Notes: generated by a model not told the origin, from the sequence alone. 53,108 nt of DNA from a virus (IMGVR_UViG_3300037076_000071:1-53108); one strand, 5' to 3'; numbered from the stretch's first letter, positions 2,494-53,108 are shown. Made by a program: numbers and translations.

Positions 2494-3042
2494 ATGCCAC
2501 CAAAAGCGTACCCACCAATGACATACGAAGCAATTGAAAAGCTGTTCGATGCCAAAATATCAGGTATCCAAAAGAGCCTTGAAGACCTGGATAAGCGATT
2601 TGCCGCTGCCATCATTAGTACCGAAAAGACTGCTGTACTACTGGCGGATACAACCAGGACAACTGCACAGATGTTAGCCGATGCACAACAAAAAGCTACC
2701 GACATCGCAGCCATATCTCTGGACAAGCGCCTGAACACGATGAATGAGTTCCGCCAGACGATATCGGACCAAGCTGCCAGCTATTATACTCGGCAGGAGC
2801 ATGATACGTGGGTTAAGGGTATTGAGGTAGATCTGAAGACGATGCGAGAAAACTTCTATTCAAAGGAACAACATGACAGTTACGCTAAAGGGGTAGAGAA
2901 TGACCTTCGGATGCTACGAGAATCAAGAGCCGAAGTGGGTGGTATGGCAAAGGCATCTCAGGTGTACTTCAGCATGATAATGGCAAGTGTAGGTGCTATC
3001 TGTGGTATTGTCTCACTCGTACTGCATTATGTAGTGAAGTAG
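2494..3042 (+). CDS. coiled-coil protein with C-terminal transmembrane helix
   Basis: Helical charged body with internal repeat (YTRQEHDTWVKGIE / YSKEQHDSYAKGVE) and hydrophobic C-terminus; TAAATA late-type promoter at 2471. Confidence 0.75.
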   Translation: MPPKAYPPMTYEAIEKLFDAKISGIQKSLEDLDKRFAAAIISTEKTAVLLADTTRTTAQMLADAQQKATDIAAISLDKRLNTMNEFRQTISDQAASYYTRQEHDTWVKGIEVDLKTMRENFYSKEQHDSYAKGVENDLRMLRESRAEVGGMAKASQVYFSMIMASVGAICGIVSLVLHYVVK

Positions 3043-3090
3043 GAAGTAAGTAGTAAGTCAAAGTGTTGTGAAATCAAAGGAGAAATCAAA

Positions 3091-3162
3091 ATGTTAGGAC
3101 TAGGATTGTTAGGAACCGTCATTGTAATTTTAGTAATTGTCTGGCTTGCCCGTAGGGTGTGA
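3091..3162 (+). CDS. 23-aa membrane peptide, DUF3309-like
   Basis: AAGGAGA SD then MLGLGLLGTVIVILVIVWLARRV; too short for the ORF track. Confidence 0.65.
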   Translation: MLGLGLLGTVIVILVIVWLARRV

Positions 3163-3170
3163 TTGTAAAA

Positions 3171-3569
3171 ATGCTCACCTTCGACCAATTCATACTCCAG
3201 GAAGCGACAACCGGCCCGAAGTCCTTCAAACGGGCTAAGATCAACTCTGTGATACCCAGACAGAAGAAGGTAGGTGGGATGAAGTCGATGGGTGGGATGA
3301 AACCAAAGTTCAAGAAGCCGCCGAAGGCCCCGAAGGGTGGCGGTTTCCTGAATGCCTTAGCGCCGCCGACGAAGATGAAGAACCCCTTGATGCCAACGGC
3401 GGGCAAGAAGAACAAGAACCCGTTCCTGGCGAAACCAAAGAAACCATTGGTGAAGAAGAAGAACGCAATGATGCCGAAGGGGAAGATGCCGGGTGTGTCC
3501 GGGATCAAGAGACCGAAGCCATTGGGAACGATGTTAGGGCAGTGGGCTAAGAAGAAGTTGGGAATTTAG
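3171..3569 (+). CDS. very basic K/P/M-rich protein, putative internal head protein
   Basis: N-terminus MLTFDQFILQE resembles the T4 internal-protein capsid targeting sequence (MKTYQEFIAE); remainder Lys/Pro low complexity. Confidence 0.65.
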   Translation: MLTFDQFILQEATTGPKSFKRAKINSVIPRQKKVGGMKSMGGMKPKFKKPPKAPKGGGFLNALAPPTKMKNPLMPTAGKKNKNPFLAKPKKPLVKKKNAMMPKGKMPGVSGIKRPKPLGTMLGQWAKKKLGI

Positions 3570-17537: not shown

Positions 17538-18452
17538 ATGGCGTGCATCGAAAAAATTTACAGCGTATCGGCAGTGATCGGCAATGGGGCGTGCAATGGC
17601 AACTGCCCCTTCTGCGCCGGGACGTATCTTAGGCCGCAAGCTCTTGACGTTTCCCCTTTGTATTGGAAGAACTACGCATCGGCAATCAAGCTGTGCGCCC
17701 GGTACGGTGGCTGGTCGCTGTCGCTGACTAGTTCCGGCGAACCGACTTGCGATCCACGGGCCATTACCAAGGCATTGGATGTTTATTCTGAATGTGCGGC
17801 ACAGGGCGCTTACATGCCGAATGTCAACCTATTCACGAATGGCATCCTGCTAGGCGACCGAGATTATTGCAACAAGTGGTTGCCTGAATGGAAGCGTCTT
17901 GGACTGACGAACATTGCAATTTCCGTTCACTCCGTGGATCGTTGGCGGCAAGGTGCGGCTTACGGAATCAACAAACCGTTTCCAGAACACATGTCGTTCA
18001 TTCCGCAAGAGGCATTCGGCTACCCAAAATTTGAAGACATCTTCGCCAATATCCGAATGCACGGAATCGGCGTCCGCACGACGTTGCTATTGCGCCGGGG
18101 AGAGGTTGACTCCTGGTATACGTATAAAGCCTCTGTGAAGCGTCTGATAGCGATGGGGTCCGACAACATCACTTCCTGGCCTGTGGGCCTTCCTGATGGC
18201 TCCAGAAGCGAATACACGCCATCTCGTTGGGGTCTGGCAACTATCCGGCTGTGGTTGAGAACCCAGGCGAAGCTCTGCCACGGTCACGTCTGGGGCGGCG
18301 GCGTCTACGACTACAACGGTGCAATCCTTCGCATGACCGATTACGTCACCAAGCATGATCCCGATCTGGACTTTGTACGCCAACTTGTTGTTTTCCAAGA
18401 CGGCACGGTTGCGTACTCGTGGATCAAAGACGGCGCTCTCTGCATGAAATAG
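17538..18452 (+). CDS. radical SAM protein
   Basis: CNGNCPFC (CxxxCxxC), SGEP, FTNG, ISVHS. Confidence 0.9.
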   Translation: MACIEKIYSVSAVIGNGACNGNCPFCAGTYLRPQALDVSPLYWKNYASAIKLCARYGGWSLSLTSSGEPTCDPRAITKALDVYSECAAQGAYMPNVNLFTNGILLGDRDYCNKWLPEWKRLGLTNIAISVHSVDRWRQGAAYGINKPFPEHMSFIPQEAFGYPKFEDIFANIRMHGIGVRTTLLLRRGEVDSWYTYKASVKRLIAMGSDNITSWPVGLPDGSRSEYTPSRWGLATIRLWLRTQAKLCHGHVWGGGVYDYNGAILRMTDYVTKHDPDLDFVRQLVVFQDGTVAYSWIKDGALCMK

Positions 18453-18465
18453 CCTAAATACAGGC

Positions 18466-18678
18466 GTGACAGTGCGACTCAAATATGGTTTGAATATGGC
18501 CGGTCAATTCGTTCCAAAAGGGACGGAGCTTGAAGTATTGGACGCCACCGACGAACGGGTACAAAAAGTCTGGCCTGGGATTCAAGCCAAAGTTGGATCG
18601 AAAGCGGTGGCCGTCCAATTTTCACATTTAACATTTCCCACGTTTGTTCATGTCAACGAAGTGGATTTTGTTAGTTGA
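18466..18678 (+). CDS. hypothetical protein
   Basis: TAAATA 5 nt before GTG. Confidence 0.65.
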   Translation: MTVRLKYGLNMAGQFVPKGTELEVLDATDERVQKVWPGIQAKVGSKAVAVQFSHLTFPTFVHVNEVDFVS

Positions 18679-18901
18679 GTACGTCTCTCTTGCCGGGAAC
18701 TGGTGGAATGGCTGGCGGGACGGACGGAGGTTTAATCGGTTCTTCTTTCTTTTCTACTGCGGATGCTGCATTGCTCATTTCTTGAGTAAGGTCTTTTTCA
18801 GCGTCTAACCAATCCTGTTCGTGGTGGCCGTGTTGACTTCCACGTTCAATCCACAATTGGTGAGCACGCTGAGTAATCTGCTCATTTGTTGGGGTTTTCA
18901 T
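18671..18901 (-). CDS. DUF2934 domain protein
   Basis: EQITQRAHQLWIERG..HG.HEQDWLDAE; TAAATA promoter upstream. Confidence 0.85.
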   Translation of the reverse strand: MKTPTNEQITQRAHQLWIERGSQHGHHEQDWLDAEKDLTQEMSNAASAVEKKEEPIKPPSVPPAIPPVPGKRDVLN

Positions 18902-18919
18902 AGTGCGGGTATTTAGCAC

Positions 18920-19363
18920 TTATTGGTAATTTTCGTCTTGAATGATTCCGAATTTGCTGAAATACCGGAGCGGACGCCATTTATGATCGTTGACGTAGAA
19001 GCCCCACTTGTGATAGGGTCTGCCGCACAATAGCAAAGTCCAGGCACCTTCCTTTGGAATGTCCAGGTAGTGCCGTTTGGTTGCCGTCGAGCGCCACACA
19101 GAGCCAGCAGAAACCTCAAACGTCCCATCTGGTGTGATATTCTTGTAGCGACCTTTGAGGATGATGGAGACGAAATTGGTGGCATGATCGTGGAAAAAGC
19201 GCCGGTCATCGGATTTGATCCAATGATGGAGTCTGATGGTGTAACCGAAGAGAACGAGAGTCCAACGGTAAAGATACGGGCACTCAGGTCTGCCAAGTGC
19301 TTCCTTCCAACGAAACTGGAAGAGCTTTCCGAATTTGCTATGATTGCTGGACCCGGTTGACAT
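18920..19363 (-). CDS. cupin-like protein
   Basis: IRLHHWIKSDD..FHDH..NFVSIILKGRY...RH...WTL...WGFY. Confidence 0.75.
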   Translation of the reverse strand: MSTGSSNHSKFGKLFQFRWKEALGRPECPYLYRWTLVLFGYTIRLHHWIKSDDRRFFHDHATNFVSIILKGRYKNITPDGTFEVSAGSVWRSTATKRHYLDIPKEGAWTLLLCGRPYHKWGFYVNDHKWRPLRYFSKFGIIQDENYQ

Positions 19364-19587
19364 TAGAAAATTGTCGCTTGAATCACCAGACTAGTACCAG
19401 CTTTGGTGATAGTTTTCTTCAGGACGACAGCCTCTCCCCATTTACCGCAGCGGCGACCACCAAGAGTTACGGTATCGCCTTCAGCAATGTTAGTGAGACG
19501 TTTGTCGTTGGGTGTGGGAAGCCAGTAAGTAGTTTGTCCGTTATTGCTGGCTTTGATGTTTTCGACTTTGGCGTTCTTACTCGCCAC
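19363..19587 (-). CDS. hypothetical protein
   Basis: ORF coupled to the downstream gene. Confidence 0.6.
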   Translation of the reverse strand: MASKNAKVENIKASNNGQTTYWLPTPNDKRLTNIAEGDTVTLGGRRCGKWGEAVVLKKTITKAGTSLVIQATIF

Positions 19588-19616
19588 TGCATGGTTACAG
19601 TACTTCCTTTAAGTTT

Positions 19617-19745
19617 TGGTCAGCGGGGAGGGAATCGAACGCCCCGACCTCATCCGTGTTGGTCGTCGTCAAACTGCACTCTGACCGGATGTGCTCTGTC
19701 ACGATGAGACTTTCATCCCACCGACTGCCACTGAGCTACCCGCCG
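19617..19745 (-). ncRNA. tRNA-like RNA with insertions in D-loop and anticodon loop
   Basis: Acceptor CGGCGGG/CCCGCTG-A-CCA, TA-GCTC...GAGC D-stem, CATCC/GGATG anticodon stem, AGGTC variable loop, GTTCGATTC T-loop; own promoter TTGACA-17-TAGAAT. Confidence 0.75.
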
Positions 19746-19818
19746 ATTACAAATTCATTCTATCACACTACTTGGTTGCTGTCAAATCGTTGGTGGTCGG
19801 ATCGCCGTTCGTGCCCAT

Positions 19819-20007
19819 GAATTATGGCAGGAGCGGGATGCCCGGAAGGATCGCCAGAAGTCGATTGGTTCGCAGCCGAAGAGGAACTGCTAAACGATTG
19901 CTTCATCAATGGATTCATGTGTCAGGGATTCGAGATCCTGTGAGTTCTGCAAGGTCTGCAATTTCTGCGAACGGATCTGTTGGAAAAGCAAGTACTGGTG
20001 TTGCCAT
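19819..20007 (-). pseudogene. possible disrupted small gene
   Basis: TTGACG-17-TACAAT promoter 6 nt before ATG 20007 (MATPVLAFPTDPFAEIADLAEL); protein-like text continues in shifted frames (DLESLTHESIDEAI; AVPLRLRTNRLLAILP). Confidence 0.35.
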
Positions 20008-20123
20008 GATTTTATTGTAGCAAAGGATTTGGAGTGCGTCAACTCGCCATATTCTCATGGTTTCTGGAGAGGCGGTGCTATACTATTTACAAAGTCCAGA
20101 TTTCCGGTCGGCAAGTGCTTGAA

Positions 20124-31804: not shown

Positions 31805-32434
31805 ATGACACGCAGCGAAGCCGGTCGATTAGGAGCATTGAAGACGATTCAAATTAGAAAGGAACAAGCAATTGTACGATACCGGAGCAACCCAAAATTT
31901 TGCTTGTTTTGCGGTACAATCATCACAGTCAAGGATGAGCACGCCAACCATGCGTTTTCCAAAATCAAGTACAAAAAATTTTGCAATCAATCGTGCGCCG
32001 CCAAGTACAACAACAAAAAATTTGTGAAAAGGAAAAGAGAATTGCAAGTGTGCCTTCGGTGCGCTGCGTCTCTGAATTGGTGGGCCAAGAAATTTTGTAG
32101 CCGTGATTGTTTCATAAAATATCGGCAAGAGACAAACGACATTTTTCAAAGGAAGACTGAAATTAGTTCATTGACATTGCGGCGGGCAATGTTGCGTCAT
32201 AATGTTGTGTATCAGTGTGCTATGTGTGGGATTGGTCCTGAATGGAATAAGCAAGCTCTAGTGCTACAGGCCGACCACAAAGATGGCAATAGTTCCAATA
32301 ACATGCTTGATAATTTAAGATTTCTCTGCCCAAATTGTCATAGCCAGACGCCCACTTATGGGATAAAGAACAAAGGAAGCGGACGACTTAGTAGAAGGAC
32401 TGGAGCGGGAAGAAGGAATCTAACCTCCGCATAA
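31805..32434 (+). CDS. HNH homing endonuclease with N-terminal zinc fingers
   Basis: KKFCNQSC and KKFCSRDC; CAMCG...LQADHKDGNSSNNMLDNLRFLCPNCHSQTPTY. Confidence 0.9.
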   Translation: MTRSEAGRLGALKTIQIRKEQAIVRYRSNPKFCLFCGTIITVKDEHANHAFSKIKYKKFCNQSCAAKYNNKKFVKRKRELQVCLRCAASLNWWAKKFCSRDCFIKYRQETNDIFQRKTEISSLTLRRAMLRHNVVYQCAMCGIGPEWNKQALVLQADHKDGNSSNNMLDNLRFLCPNCHSQTPTYGIKNKGSGRLSRRTGAGRRNLTSA

Positions 32435-32475
32435 AGATTTTGCAGATCTTGACCTTAACACTTGGCTATTCCCGC
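32401..32475 (-). tRNA. tRNA-Cys(GCA)
   Basis: GCGGGAA/TTCCCGC-T-CCA; AAGAT-CT-GCA-AA-ATCTT; atypical T-loop TTAGATT. Confidence 0.85.
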
Positions 32476-32484
32476 TTAGAAATT

Positions 32485-32566
32485 TGGAGCACGGTGAGGG
32501 ATTTGAACCCCCGACATATGTCAGCTTTGCAGGCTGATGCCTTGAACCAGACTTGGCGAACCGTGC
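32485..32566 (-). tRNA. tRNA-Cys(GCA)
   Basis: GCACGGT/ACCGTGC-T-CCA; TCAGC-CT-GCA-AA-GCTGA; GGTTCAAATCC. Confidence 0.9.
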
Positions 32567-52744: not shown

Positions 52745-53064
52745 GCTTTAATCGGTTCTAGGATTTTCACGCTCTCACCTAGACTTTTACGCCACCGGGC
52801 CGTTATTTAACAGAGTGTACCTACTCCGTCCGTCGCTGTTTAGGCAGCGAGAGGAAGTGCAAACGTTTCCGTAGCAGTTATTGTTCTTCCTGGGTTTCGG
52901 GTAGAAGACCCGGTAAGCCCCACTTCGCCAACTTTTCATCCTGTCGAGACCATTGCGCCCCCGAAACTTTATCAGTGCCTAAAAGACTGAAGAATTTGGT
53001 GGAGGCGAGGGGAGTCGAACCCCTGTCCAAAATGCGTTAAGCTCGTTTCGACATCATGCTTACA
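52745..53064 (-). ncRNA. ssrA: circularly permuted (two-piece) tmRNA
   Basis: Acceptor piece ~53064-52997 ends GGTTCGACTCCCCTCGCCTCCACCA; 34-nt spacer; coding piece starts GGGGGCGCAATGGTCTCGACAGG at 52962; G3-U70 pair; tag ATETFALPLAA* at 52875-52840; 3-prime end of coding piece approximate. Confidence 0.9.
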
Positions 53065-53068
53065 GTTC

Positions 53069-53099
53069 TATTTATAGCACGATACCGCCGATCTGTCAA
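53069..53099 (-). promoter_or_regulatory. dual sigma70 / T4-late promoter of the tmRNA-tRNA operon
   Basis: TTGACA-17-TATAAATA. Confidence 0.75.
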
Positions 53100-53108
53100 G
53101 AGGGATCG

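Follow-up and report, generated by a model that had tools for sequence, protein, structure and literature searches.

We describe a 129-nucleotide (nt) tRNA-like gene of valine type on the minus strand of the viral DNA IMGVR_UViG_3300037076_000071 (positions 1 to 53108; the whole 53,108-nt stretch analyzed is referred to here as the window). The element extends from C1 at position 19745 to the last A of an encoded CCA end at position 19617 and carries structured insertions in both its D loop and its anticodon loop. Comparison with relatives indicates that all 129 nt, both insertions included, are under strong purifying selection and that the element derives from tRNA-Val. We tentatively favor the view that it is a selected, non-decoding, valine-type tRNA mimic which keeps both insertions and is probably charged by the valyl-tRNA synthetase (ValRS) of the host. 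It belongs to a family of elements that is widespread in phages and apparently so far undescribed.

Predicted cloverleaf with two inserted hairpins

The acceptor stem of the element pairs at seven of seven positions, including G2·U71, between a 5' strand CGGCGGG (19739 to 19745) and a 3' strand CCCGCTG (19627 to 19621); the latter is followed by A73 (19620) and the encoded CCA (19619 to 19617), so that the 3' end of the gene occupies 19617 to 19627. The D arm (19693 to 19736) consists of a stem with four of four pairs, GCTC (19736 to 19733) with GAGC (19696 to 19693), and a 36-nt loop containing AGTGG, into which a hairpin is inserted after the nucleotides G18, G19, C, and A. This hairpin (19698 to 19725) is 28 nt long, has an 8-bp stem and a GAAA cap, and is laid out as GTC-GGTGGGAT-GAAA-GTCTCATC-GT-GAC. 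The anticodon arm (19651 to 19691) forms five of five pairs, CATCC (19691 to 19687) with GGATG (19655 to 19651), around a 31-nt loop (19686 to 19656) that begins GG and finishes CCAACAC and that can form either a local hairpin (GTCAGA/TTTGAC) or a closing helix (GGTC/GACC). The last five nucleotides of this loop, AACAC (19656 to 19660), abut the 3' strand of the anticodon stem and take the valine-type anticodon position as N34-A35-C36 plus two nucleotides, with AAC at 19660 to 19658 and a C at the position equivalent to 33. The variable loop is AGGTC and the T loop is TTCGATT. The T arm, GGGG(C)G/TTCGATT/CCCTC (19628 to 19645), is irregular: GGGGCG can pair with CCCTC only by means of a bulged C (19641) or a C·C mismatch. 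The original prediction had all stems intact, which was right for the acceptor, D, and anticodon stems and wrong for the T stem.

An unconstrained minimum-free-energy (MFE) fold of the minus strand returned the cloverleaf together with both inserted hairpins, in agreement with the doubly interrupted tRNA scaffold first proposed for 19617 to 19745. The element thus has the four helices, the D-loop GG, and the TTCRA-type T loop of a canonical tRNA cloverleaf and lacks the canonical 7-nt anticodon loop with U33, having 31 nt and C33 instead. Its folding energy was unexceptional (z = -1.07; 28 of 200 shuffled sequences folded equally well), so the case for more than a chance structure comes from comparison with relatives and not from thermodynamics. 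The scans that had been suggested as checks did not detect the element. ARAGORN called five genes in the window, none of them at this site, and Rfam matched no RF00005 model to it at the gathering threshold, nor at expect values (E) up to 10 on 19400 to 19950, where two chance matches were all that appeared. A blastn search with 19500 to 19900 against 50,697 phage records found no match, and the exact pattern of the 28-nt D hairpin had 0 matches in viral contigs.

Conservation of both insertions in a diverged relative

Relatives were fetched by way of the downstream cupin gene, which yielded 40 viral and 80 metagenome loci. One of them, L060, carries the same element at 1864 to 1990, and 125 of the 129 nt (96.9%) are identical to those of the window. 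The surroundings are far more diverged: the 100 nt upstream and the 100 nt downstream are 59% and 57% identical, respectively, and the cupin gene (89% protein identity) is 77.9% identical overall and matches at 75 of 148 third codon positions (51%). The anticodon loop is identical at 31 of 31 positions. All four differences are confined to the tip of the D hairpin, where G28>A turns a G·U pair into A-U, two one-base deletions remove the closing U·G pair, and the GAAA cap becomes GCAA; the L060 hairpin is consequently one pair shorter and retains a GNRA cap. These hairpin-preserving changes, set against the diverged flanks, indicate strong purifying selection on the whole 129 nt and exclude a decaying pseudogene, as the original prediction had proposed in calling the insertions selected rather than decayed. 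That prediction had also named expression and homologues conserving the inserted hairpins as the marks by which the element could be told from a simple pseudo-tRNA. L060 keeps both hairpins, compensatory changes occur throughout the family described below, and the element is present in RNA libraries.

Related elements in other phages

Applying a motif of the 5' acceptor strand and D arm, together with one of the T arm and complementary 3' acceptor strand, to all loci recovered at least 49 distinct phage sequences of 73 to 276 nt. Forty-one of them could be parsed cleanly. C1-G72 was present in 41 of 41, A73 in 40, and U at position 71, paired with G or A, in 38; CCA was encoded in 17. Compensatory changes were found at 13 of 16 predicted pairs among 11 short members and at 22 of 51 pairs, those of both inserted hairpins included, among 4 members with long D-loop insertions. 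The anticodon stem formed five of five pairs in 40 of 49 members in spite of ~27 different sequences. The acceptor, D, anticodon, and T helices therefore appear to be preserved family-wide by compensatory change, which answers the suggestion that covariation be sought in homologues. No description of the family was found in full-text searches of the literature, in Rfam 15, or in annotated phage records, a search that did not cover supplementary tRNA tables.

Insertions of 1 to ~200 nt recur at the same sites, namely the D loop, the 5' half of the anticodon loop, and the T stem. D-loop insertions follow G18-G19; those of the window type are 26 to 28 nt long, and those of L002, L064, L067, L009, and L071 form a two-hairpin domain of ~95 to 110 nt whose hairpins covary. 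Insertion into the 5' half of the anticodon loop gives loops of 7 to 143 nt, and of ~207 nt in the group of Caulobacter phage CcrPW; among the cleanly parsed members, the lengths were 7 nt (two members), 8 nt (six), 9 nt (two), 12 nt (one), and 31 to 143 nt (thirty). The third site follows base pair 3 or 4 of the T stem on its 5' strand and is occupied in 14 of 41 members (by 1 to 4 nt in 13 and by a 26-nt hairpin in L023), and the bulged C of the window belongs here. An insertion between the D and anticodon arms was seen once (L012). The sequences of the long inserts group into several unrelated classes; a common core motif was considered and dropped, a GAAATAC-like sequence being present in only 6 members. 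In many members the ends of the anticodon-loop insert pair together and stack on the anticodon stem, leaving N34-A35-C36-N37-N38 as a one-sided bulge, and the window can form the same stacked arrangement through GGTC/GACC. Many members sit in tRNA arrays or after another tRNA.

Valine identity nucleotides and loss of decoding features

To read the anticodon region of the 49 members, we delimited the anticodon stem by three criteria (complementary strands, a place next to the D arm, and the distance to the T loop), without requiring AC, and took the seven nucleotides before its 3' strand as positions 32 to 38. Position 35 was A in 46 members and position 36 was C in 43, so that in 43 to 46 of 49 the spacing between A35-C36 and the 3' strand of the anticodon stem was constant. 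The exceptions were an AT-rich group (L019, L028, and L031), in which the stems are ambiguous, and the CcrPW group. The surrounding positions varied: position 32 was mixed, position 33 was T in 24, G in 12, C in 7, and A in 6, position 34 was A in 22, T in 15, G in 7, and C in 5, position 37 was A in 37, T in 8, and G in 4, and position 38 was T in 28, A in 13, C in 7, and G in 1. The window has A35, C36, and A73, which are given as established ValRS identity elements in the passages of PMC9976931 on viral valylation. Together with the nearly constant A73 of the family, this pattern indicates that the element derives from tRNA-Val, and it agrees with the valine ancestry first suspected from the loop end ACAC and A73.

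What the ribosome requires of an anticodon loop (U33, a purine at 37, and a length of 7 nt) is not conserved in the family. Members that have no long insertion show loops of 6, 8, 9, or 12 nt, and a 7-nt loop was found only in L071 (ATTACAT) and L124 (AGAACTT). The phage record that holds L002 (G005; 317 kb and 99% complete) has 62 tRNA matches, among them normal tRNA-Val genes with GAC, CAC, and UAC anticodons, G1-C72, and 7-nt loops, in addition to a 173-nt Val-like element. Since three normal tRNA-Val genes coexist with it, the element is an extra gene in this phage and not its valine decoder. No class Ia synthetase gene was found in 18 of 19 phage records, which argues against a dedicated phage ValRS.

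RNA contigs and the search for splicing functions

Six metatranscriptome runs hold about one-eighth of the sampled words of 19300 to 19900, and four of these runs were examined. All four contained contigs that cover 19616 to 19750 with both insertions present, in the sequence of the L060 variant. The contigs join the element through an 11- to 14-nt spacer to a second tandem element, as in L060. Since their source is a relative resembling L060, whose flanks differ from those of the window, parts of 19300 to 19900 outside the element were uncovered. The unspliced form thus exists in RNA libraries, and the tandem contigs fit a dimeric precursor. No contig skipped either insertion, a result that was not counted as evidence because absence cannot be shown by contigs. 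In L060 itself, the second Val-like element (2005 to 2212) is 208 nt long, begins 14 nt after the window-type element, and has a 139-nt anticodon-loop insertion ending CGAACAT. In one run (X15), a 151-nt unitig had ends overlapping by 30 nt, which gives a circular-looking path of 121 nt with C70 joined to C1 (19623 to 19745); this joint may reflect a circular RNA or template switching exactly at the 5' end.

We also looked for functions that could remove the insertions. The tRNA-splicing endonuclease family PF01974 (EndA) was found in 0 of 5 phage records searched. Genes for the RNA ligase RtcB were present in 7 of 19 phage records, and none was found in the window (a 38% complete fragment) or in the 99% complete G005. 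The window type of element, with its 31-nt loop, falls in the RtcB-free group, although the window is only a fragment of its genome. The group I intron core (RF00028) had no match in 19400 to 19950 at E up to 10, nor in the inserts of the family, and Rfam ribozyme and intron families had none in the inserts of 15 plus 8 related loci or of CcrPW. A true group I intron does occur in another tRNA gene of a related phage (L039, 2736 to 2959 within 2717 to 2989; RF00028, 70.1 bits). Inspection by eye of the predicted folds for bulge-helix-bulge (BHB) motifs at the junctions revealed nothing beyond a local hairpin or a bulge on one side. The outcomes of excision were judged on natural sequences only.

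Genomic context and cultured carriers

The window is a fragment of a phage genome, estimated to be ~38% complete; it encodes four ordinary tRNAs and a permuted transfer-messenger RNA (tmRNA), besides a baseplate protein and a tail-lysin-like protein. A sigma-70-type promoter, TTGACA-17-TAGAAT with a TG extension (19757 to 19785, minus strand), precedes the element, with the -35 box at 19785 to 19780, the -10 box at 19762 to 19757, and its end 11 nt before C1. The promoter scores 11 of 12 against the consensus; a scan of 19300 to 20100 found two sites where 0.6 was expected and detected no terminator-like site separating the element from the cupin gene. L060 has a counterpart at the matching place (TTGACT...TATAAT), and by our criteria a promoter ends 4 to 14 nt before C1 in 11 of 48 family members. 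The dedicated consensus promoter of the original prediction thus held up and recurs in relatives.

Downstream of the element lies a gene for a metal cupin of 147 amino acids (18920 to 19363, minus strand; phrog_4786, E = 2.7e-26). The cupin belongs to no Pfam family; its AlphaFold model (mean predicted local distance difference test score, 88.5) has generic small metal cupins such as TM1459 as its best PDB matches, and the fold search was dropped as a guide to its role because it gave no clue to RNA binding. An element lies less than 900 nt from the cupin gene in at least 78 of 120 loci (upstream in 60 and directly downstream in 18), and many of the remaining loci have short flanks or variants outside the strict pattern. 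In some loci the element ends 12 to 20 nt before the cupin gene. Searching with the RNA motif alone led to L042, in which a cupin of 35% identity is encoded 800 nt downstream. This linkage is a lead without a mechanism. A scan of bacterial genomes for the cupin pattern gave only four loci, all in metagenome-assembled bins.

Cultured phages carry the element as well. In the Caulobacter phages CcrPW and CcrColossus and the Brevundimonas phage Bajun, one element of 274 to 276 nt lies in each of the unannotated gaps of ~670 to 700 nt (L139, 1318 to 1990; L141, 815 to 1490; and L142, 800 to 1498, respectively) that precede genes for an RsmD-like methyltransferase and the cupin; CcrPW has a second tandem element of ~240 nt, read by eye. 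Paraglaciecola Antarctic GD virus 1 (L140) has a 127-nt element with a loop ending GACAA before its cupin gene, and genes for an RNA ligase and a phosphatase lie just upstream of that element. An RNA ligase gene is not a regular neighbor: among the loci searched, it was limited to L140 and to L095/L096, which have a homologue beside the element. Downstream of the L140 cupin gene (2900 to 3400), at least three more T-arm, acceptor, and CCA ends occur without annotated tRNAs and may belong to further interrupted tRNA-like genes. Rhizobium phage RHph_Y1_11 has a 228-nt element (L143, 1286 to 1513) under the start of an annotated methyltransferase gene, whose coding sequence appears to begin ~230 nt too early, across the element (L143, 1276 to 1513). 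Pseudomonas phage PaBG has distant cupin homologues; the annotation leaves no gap beside the gene, and the scan that recovered the RHph_Y1_11 element detected none there.

Other genes of the window and of the related phages were noted in passing. A radical S-adenosylmethionine (SAM) gene (17538 to 18452, plus strand; PF04055, E = 5.4e-08), with a homologue in L041, and a DUF2934 protein gene (18671 to 18919, minus strand) flank the cupin region. Between the element and the cupin gene, the window has a 74-amino-acid open reading frame, where L060 has its second Val-like element; tblastn found no match to it in 40 related loci, and it is probably not a conserved gene. Two upstream candidates (orf312 and orf139) look spurious. 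The tmRNA, of the permuted two-piece type (52749 to 53108, minus strand; RF04321, 97.5 bits; ARAGORN tag peptide ATETFALPLAA), has its Rfam matches at 52840 to 53108 and adjoins two tRNA-Thr genes. Two tandem tRNA-Cys(GCA) genes lie at 32485 to 32566 and 32401 to 32475 on the minus strand, one of which measures 82 nt, its D region being enlarged and its variable loop 8 nt long. In related phages, other tRNA genes for Lys-UUU, Trp, His, Thr, Asn, and Glu (L019, 5401 to 7190; also L028, L031, and L039) are 82 to 94 nt long and bear hairpin-like long variable arms, normally absent from these isoacceptors, and a tRNA match in L039 (1757 to 1893; RF00005, 41.5 bits) spans 134 nt and hence also holds an insertion. 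One or two tRNA(CUA) genes of the amber-suppressor type lie directly upstream of the Val-like element in L015 (2342 to 2414), L016 (2556 to 2709), and L017 (3750 to 3903), which hints at stop-codon recoding in these phages.

Discussion

We favor, tentatively, the interpretation of the element as a non-decoding valine-type tRNA mimic in view of the selection on the element, the features kept across its family, a precedent among plant viruses, the lost decoding marks (U33 is found in 24 of 49 members), the tRNA-Val genes that coexist with the element in one relative, and the unspliced RNA contigs. The precedent is the valine-type tRNA-like structure, TLS(Val), which, in the passages of PMC9976931 that treat it, is valylated through A35 and C36, takes no part in decoding, and tolerates inserted stem-loops. 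In the mechanism we envisage, RNase P and 3' processing would release a tRNA-shaped RNA, host ValRS would recognize A35, C36, and A73 and charge it, and the insertions would sit where they project from the tRNA body. The RNA, charged or uncharged, would then act off the ribosome, possibly with the adjacent cupin. Candidate roles include sequestering a host factor that binds tRNA, as a decoy or sponge, serving an enzyme that uses aminoacyl-tRNA as its substrate, and providing a platform for a protein; the anticodon-nuclease decoy and the EF-Tu ligand of the original prediction received no direct support. That prediction had left the choice between a mimic and a doubly interrupted tRNA open, and our data lean toward the mimic, with splicing a less probable alternative.

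Several observations weigh against the mimic. Work on valine identity reports that G·U pairs at acceptor position 3 or 4 impair charging, and the element has G2·U71 and C1-G72. L071 has a normal 7-nt loop, ATTACAT, and in 7 of ~27 insertion classes the last seven nucleotides of the loop form a normal valine anticodon loop (for example, CTTACAT, GTCACAT, and ATGACAT), in which precise excision would give a working tRNA. Of the seven records whose element has an anticodon-loop insertion of 87 nt or longer, six encode RtcB (G001, G003, G008, G010, G013, and G017; G006 does not), compared with 1 of the 12 others (G011); this association is confounded by kinship, genome size, and completeness. The RNA contigs are blind to strand, ends, and level and could stem from a precursor or from DNA carry-over; two of them extend ~345 nt upstream of the promoter, and libraries of this kind would probably fail to retain a spliced product of 76 nt. 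Finally, in L004 to L008 a deletion has removed the T arm and the 3' acceptor strand, so the element is dispensable in at least one lineage.

In the main rival reading, the element is an interrupted tRNA-Val, whose inserts in the D loop and the anticodon loop are cut out by an endonuclease or by the RNA itself and whose ends are joined by an RtcB-type ligase of phage or host, giving a decoding or near-normal tRNA by a mechanism other than group I splicing. We consider this rather unlikely; it is a stronger reading for the relatives with long inserts than for the window copy. Inserts of very different size and sequence at the same few sites are intron-like, the canonical N32-U33-NAC-A37-N38 ending of the seven classes mentioned above would suit excision, a genuine group I intron interrupts another tRNA in L039, and RNA ligase genes lie beside the elements of L140 and of L095/L096, with a phosphatase gene in L140; the co-occurrence of RtcB with long inserts is the best argument for splicing there. 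However, the window loop (GG...CCAACAC, with C33) yields no normal loop by simple excision, insertion-free relatives have loops of 6, 8, 9, and 12 nt, and only 24 of 49 members have U33. PF01974 was missing from all five records searched, no insert matched an Rfam ribozyme or intron, and RtcB was absent from the window fragment and from G005. The identity of the 31-nt loop in L060 likewise reflects more constraint than a short spacer intron needs.

A distinctly less probable alternative is that the element serves as a processing or stability module on the cupin transcript, acted on by RNase P and 3' nucleases, or as a scaffold for hairpin cargo, its valine marks being leftovers. The promoter directly upstream, the lack of a terminator-like site before the cupin gene within 19300 to 20100, the proximity to the cupin gene in at least 78 of 120 loci (at the head of the transcript or, for some phages, at its tail), the persistence of this linkage down to 35% cupin identity, and the heterogeneous, cargo-like insert classes all speak for such a role. 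Against it, a leftover anticodon would not stay A35-C36 in 43 to 46 of 49 members while its neighbors vary, many members lie in tRNA arrays or behind another tRNA and do not head an mRNA, the window-type element of L060 precedes a second element and not the cupin gene, and PaBG has cupin homologues without an element, in contrast to RHph_Y1_11. Antisense cargo was considered and rejected, since the inserts are no more complementary to other parts of the window than chance would give; this result also counts against the module. That the element is nothing but a decaying tRNA-Val pseudogene with chance insertions is exceedingly improbable. Its rejection by tRNA finders, its imperfect T stem, its ordinary folding energy, and the truncated copy in L004 to L008 would suit such decay; the 96.9% identity beside flanks at 57 to 59% and third codon positions at 51%, the structure-keeping changes, the conserved promoter, the family-wide covariation, and the presence in RNA libraries do not, and the idea would be revived only if the L060 identity stemmed from a very recent transfer of the 129-nt piece alone.

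Carrying the interpretation as a mimic further, we think it possible, with considerable doubt, that large double-stranded DNA phages, including culturable ones of Caulobacter, Brevundimonas, and Paraglaciecola, carry a dedicated class of non-decoding RNAs chargeable by ValRS whose D loop, anticodon loop, and T stem are docking sites for diverse structured RNA modules and which are partnered with a conserved small metal cupin, as a DNA-phage counterpart of the TLS(Val) of plant viruses, or else that the long inserts are the first bacterial or phage tRNA introns to be cut out and ligated by RtcB. Phage tRNA genes have been much studied, yet standard finders miss this family, and even RefSeq and GenBank entries for cultured phages leave its members without annotation. 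If the RNAs are chargeable and non-decoding, they would be a case of aminoacyl-tRNA mimicry outside translation in phages, so far found mainly in plant RNA viruses; if they are spliced, bacteria and their phages would have a way of splicing tRNA that depends on proteins, and phage RtcB would have a natural substrate. Either way, the family maps the tRNA positions that tolerate large structured insertions under selection, which is useful for engineering tRNA scaffolds, and the alternatives can be tested in Caulobacter and its phages.

Comparison with known systems

Among known systems, the TLS-Val of plant viruses such as turnip yellow mosaic virus (TYMV) has much in common with the phage element. 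It is virus encoded and tRNA shaped, it conserves A35 and C36 and often A73, it has no part in decoding, and it tolerates large inserted stem-loops without loss of valylation (PMC9976931). TLS-Val differs in being part of an RNA genome and in having a pseudoknotted acceptor arm and a 7-nt loop with a conserved A35-C-A-C38. The phage element, in contrast, is a separate gene of a double-stranded DNA phage with its own promoter, an ordinary 7-bp acceptor stem, and a normal T loop; the 5' half of its anticodon loop is hypervariable, and its valylation is predicted from its identity nucleotides. A report of host tRNA fragments bound by an anti-CRISPR (PMC11662646) was set aside as not relevant.

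The tRNA genes of archaea that contain multiple BHB introns are similar in that a single gene has insertions in its D loop, its anticodon loop, and its T arm and in that standard finders miss such genes. Here, however, the carrier is a bacterial phage with a tmRNA gene and sigma-70 promoters, and a splicing endonuclease was found in none of five records; the insert helix stacks on the anticodon stem with a single 3'-side bulge of 4 to 5 nt, NACNN, and most members of the family would not regain a normal loop on excision. Group I introns of tRNA genes share the insertion into the anticodon loop, as in the genuine example of L039. Known self-splicing group I introns are ~200 nt long, whereas the inserts of the window are 24 to 28 nt and those of the family mostly 40 to 140 nt, and the inserts lie 5' of the anticodon.

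The tRNA-like domain of tmRNA and the Y-RNA-like YrlA of bacteria are likewise tRNA shaped and use tRNA enzymes or partners for a non-decoding job. The element differs from tmRNA in that its acceptor and anticodon are of valine and not of alanine type and its anticodon stem is complete, and the tmRNA of the window is a separate gene. YrlA itself was discarded as a candidate: it had no match in the window, and its only match (24.1 bits, against a cutoff of 69) is explained by two tandem elements that bring a T arm and a D arm together. Some phage tRNAs with altered anticodon loops escape host anticodon nucleases, and these, too, are phage-encoded variants with a changed anticodon loop, which in their case is adaptive in conflict with the host. 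They are decoders with 7-nt loops, whereas the loop of the element is 31 nt long and those of its relatives reach 143 nt among the cleanly parsed members and ~207 nt in the CcrPW element.

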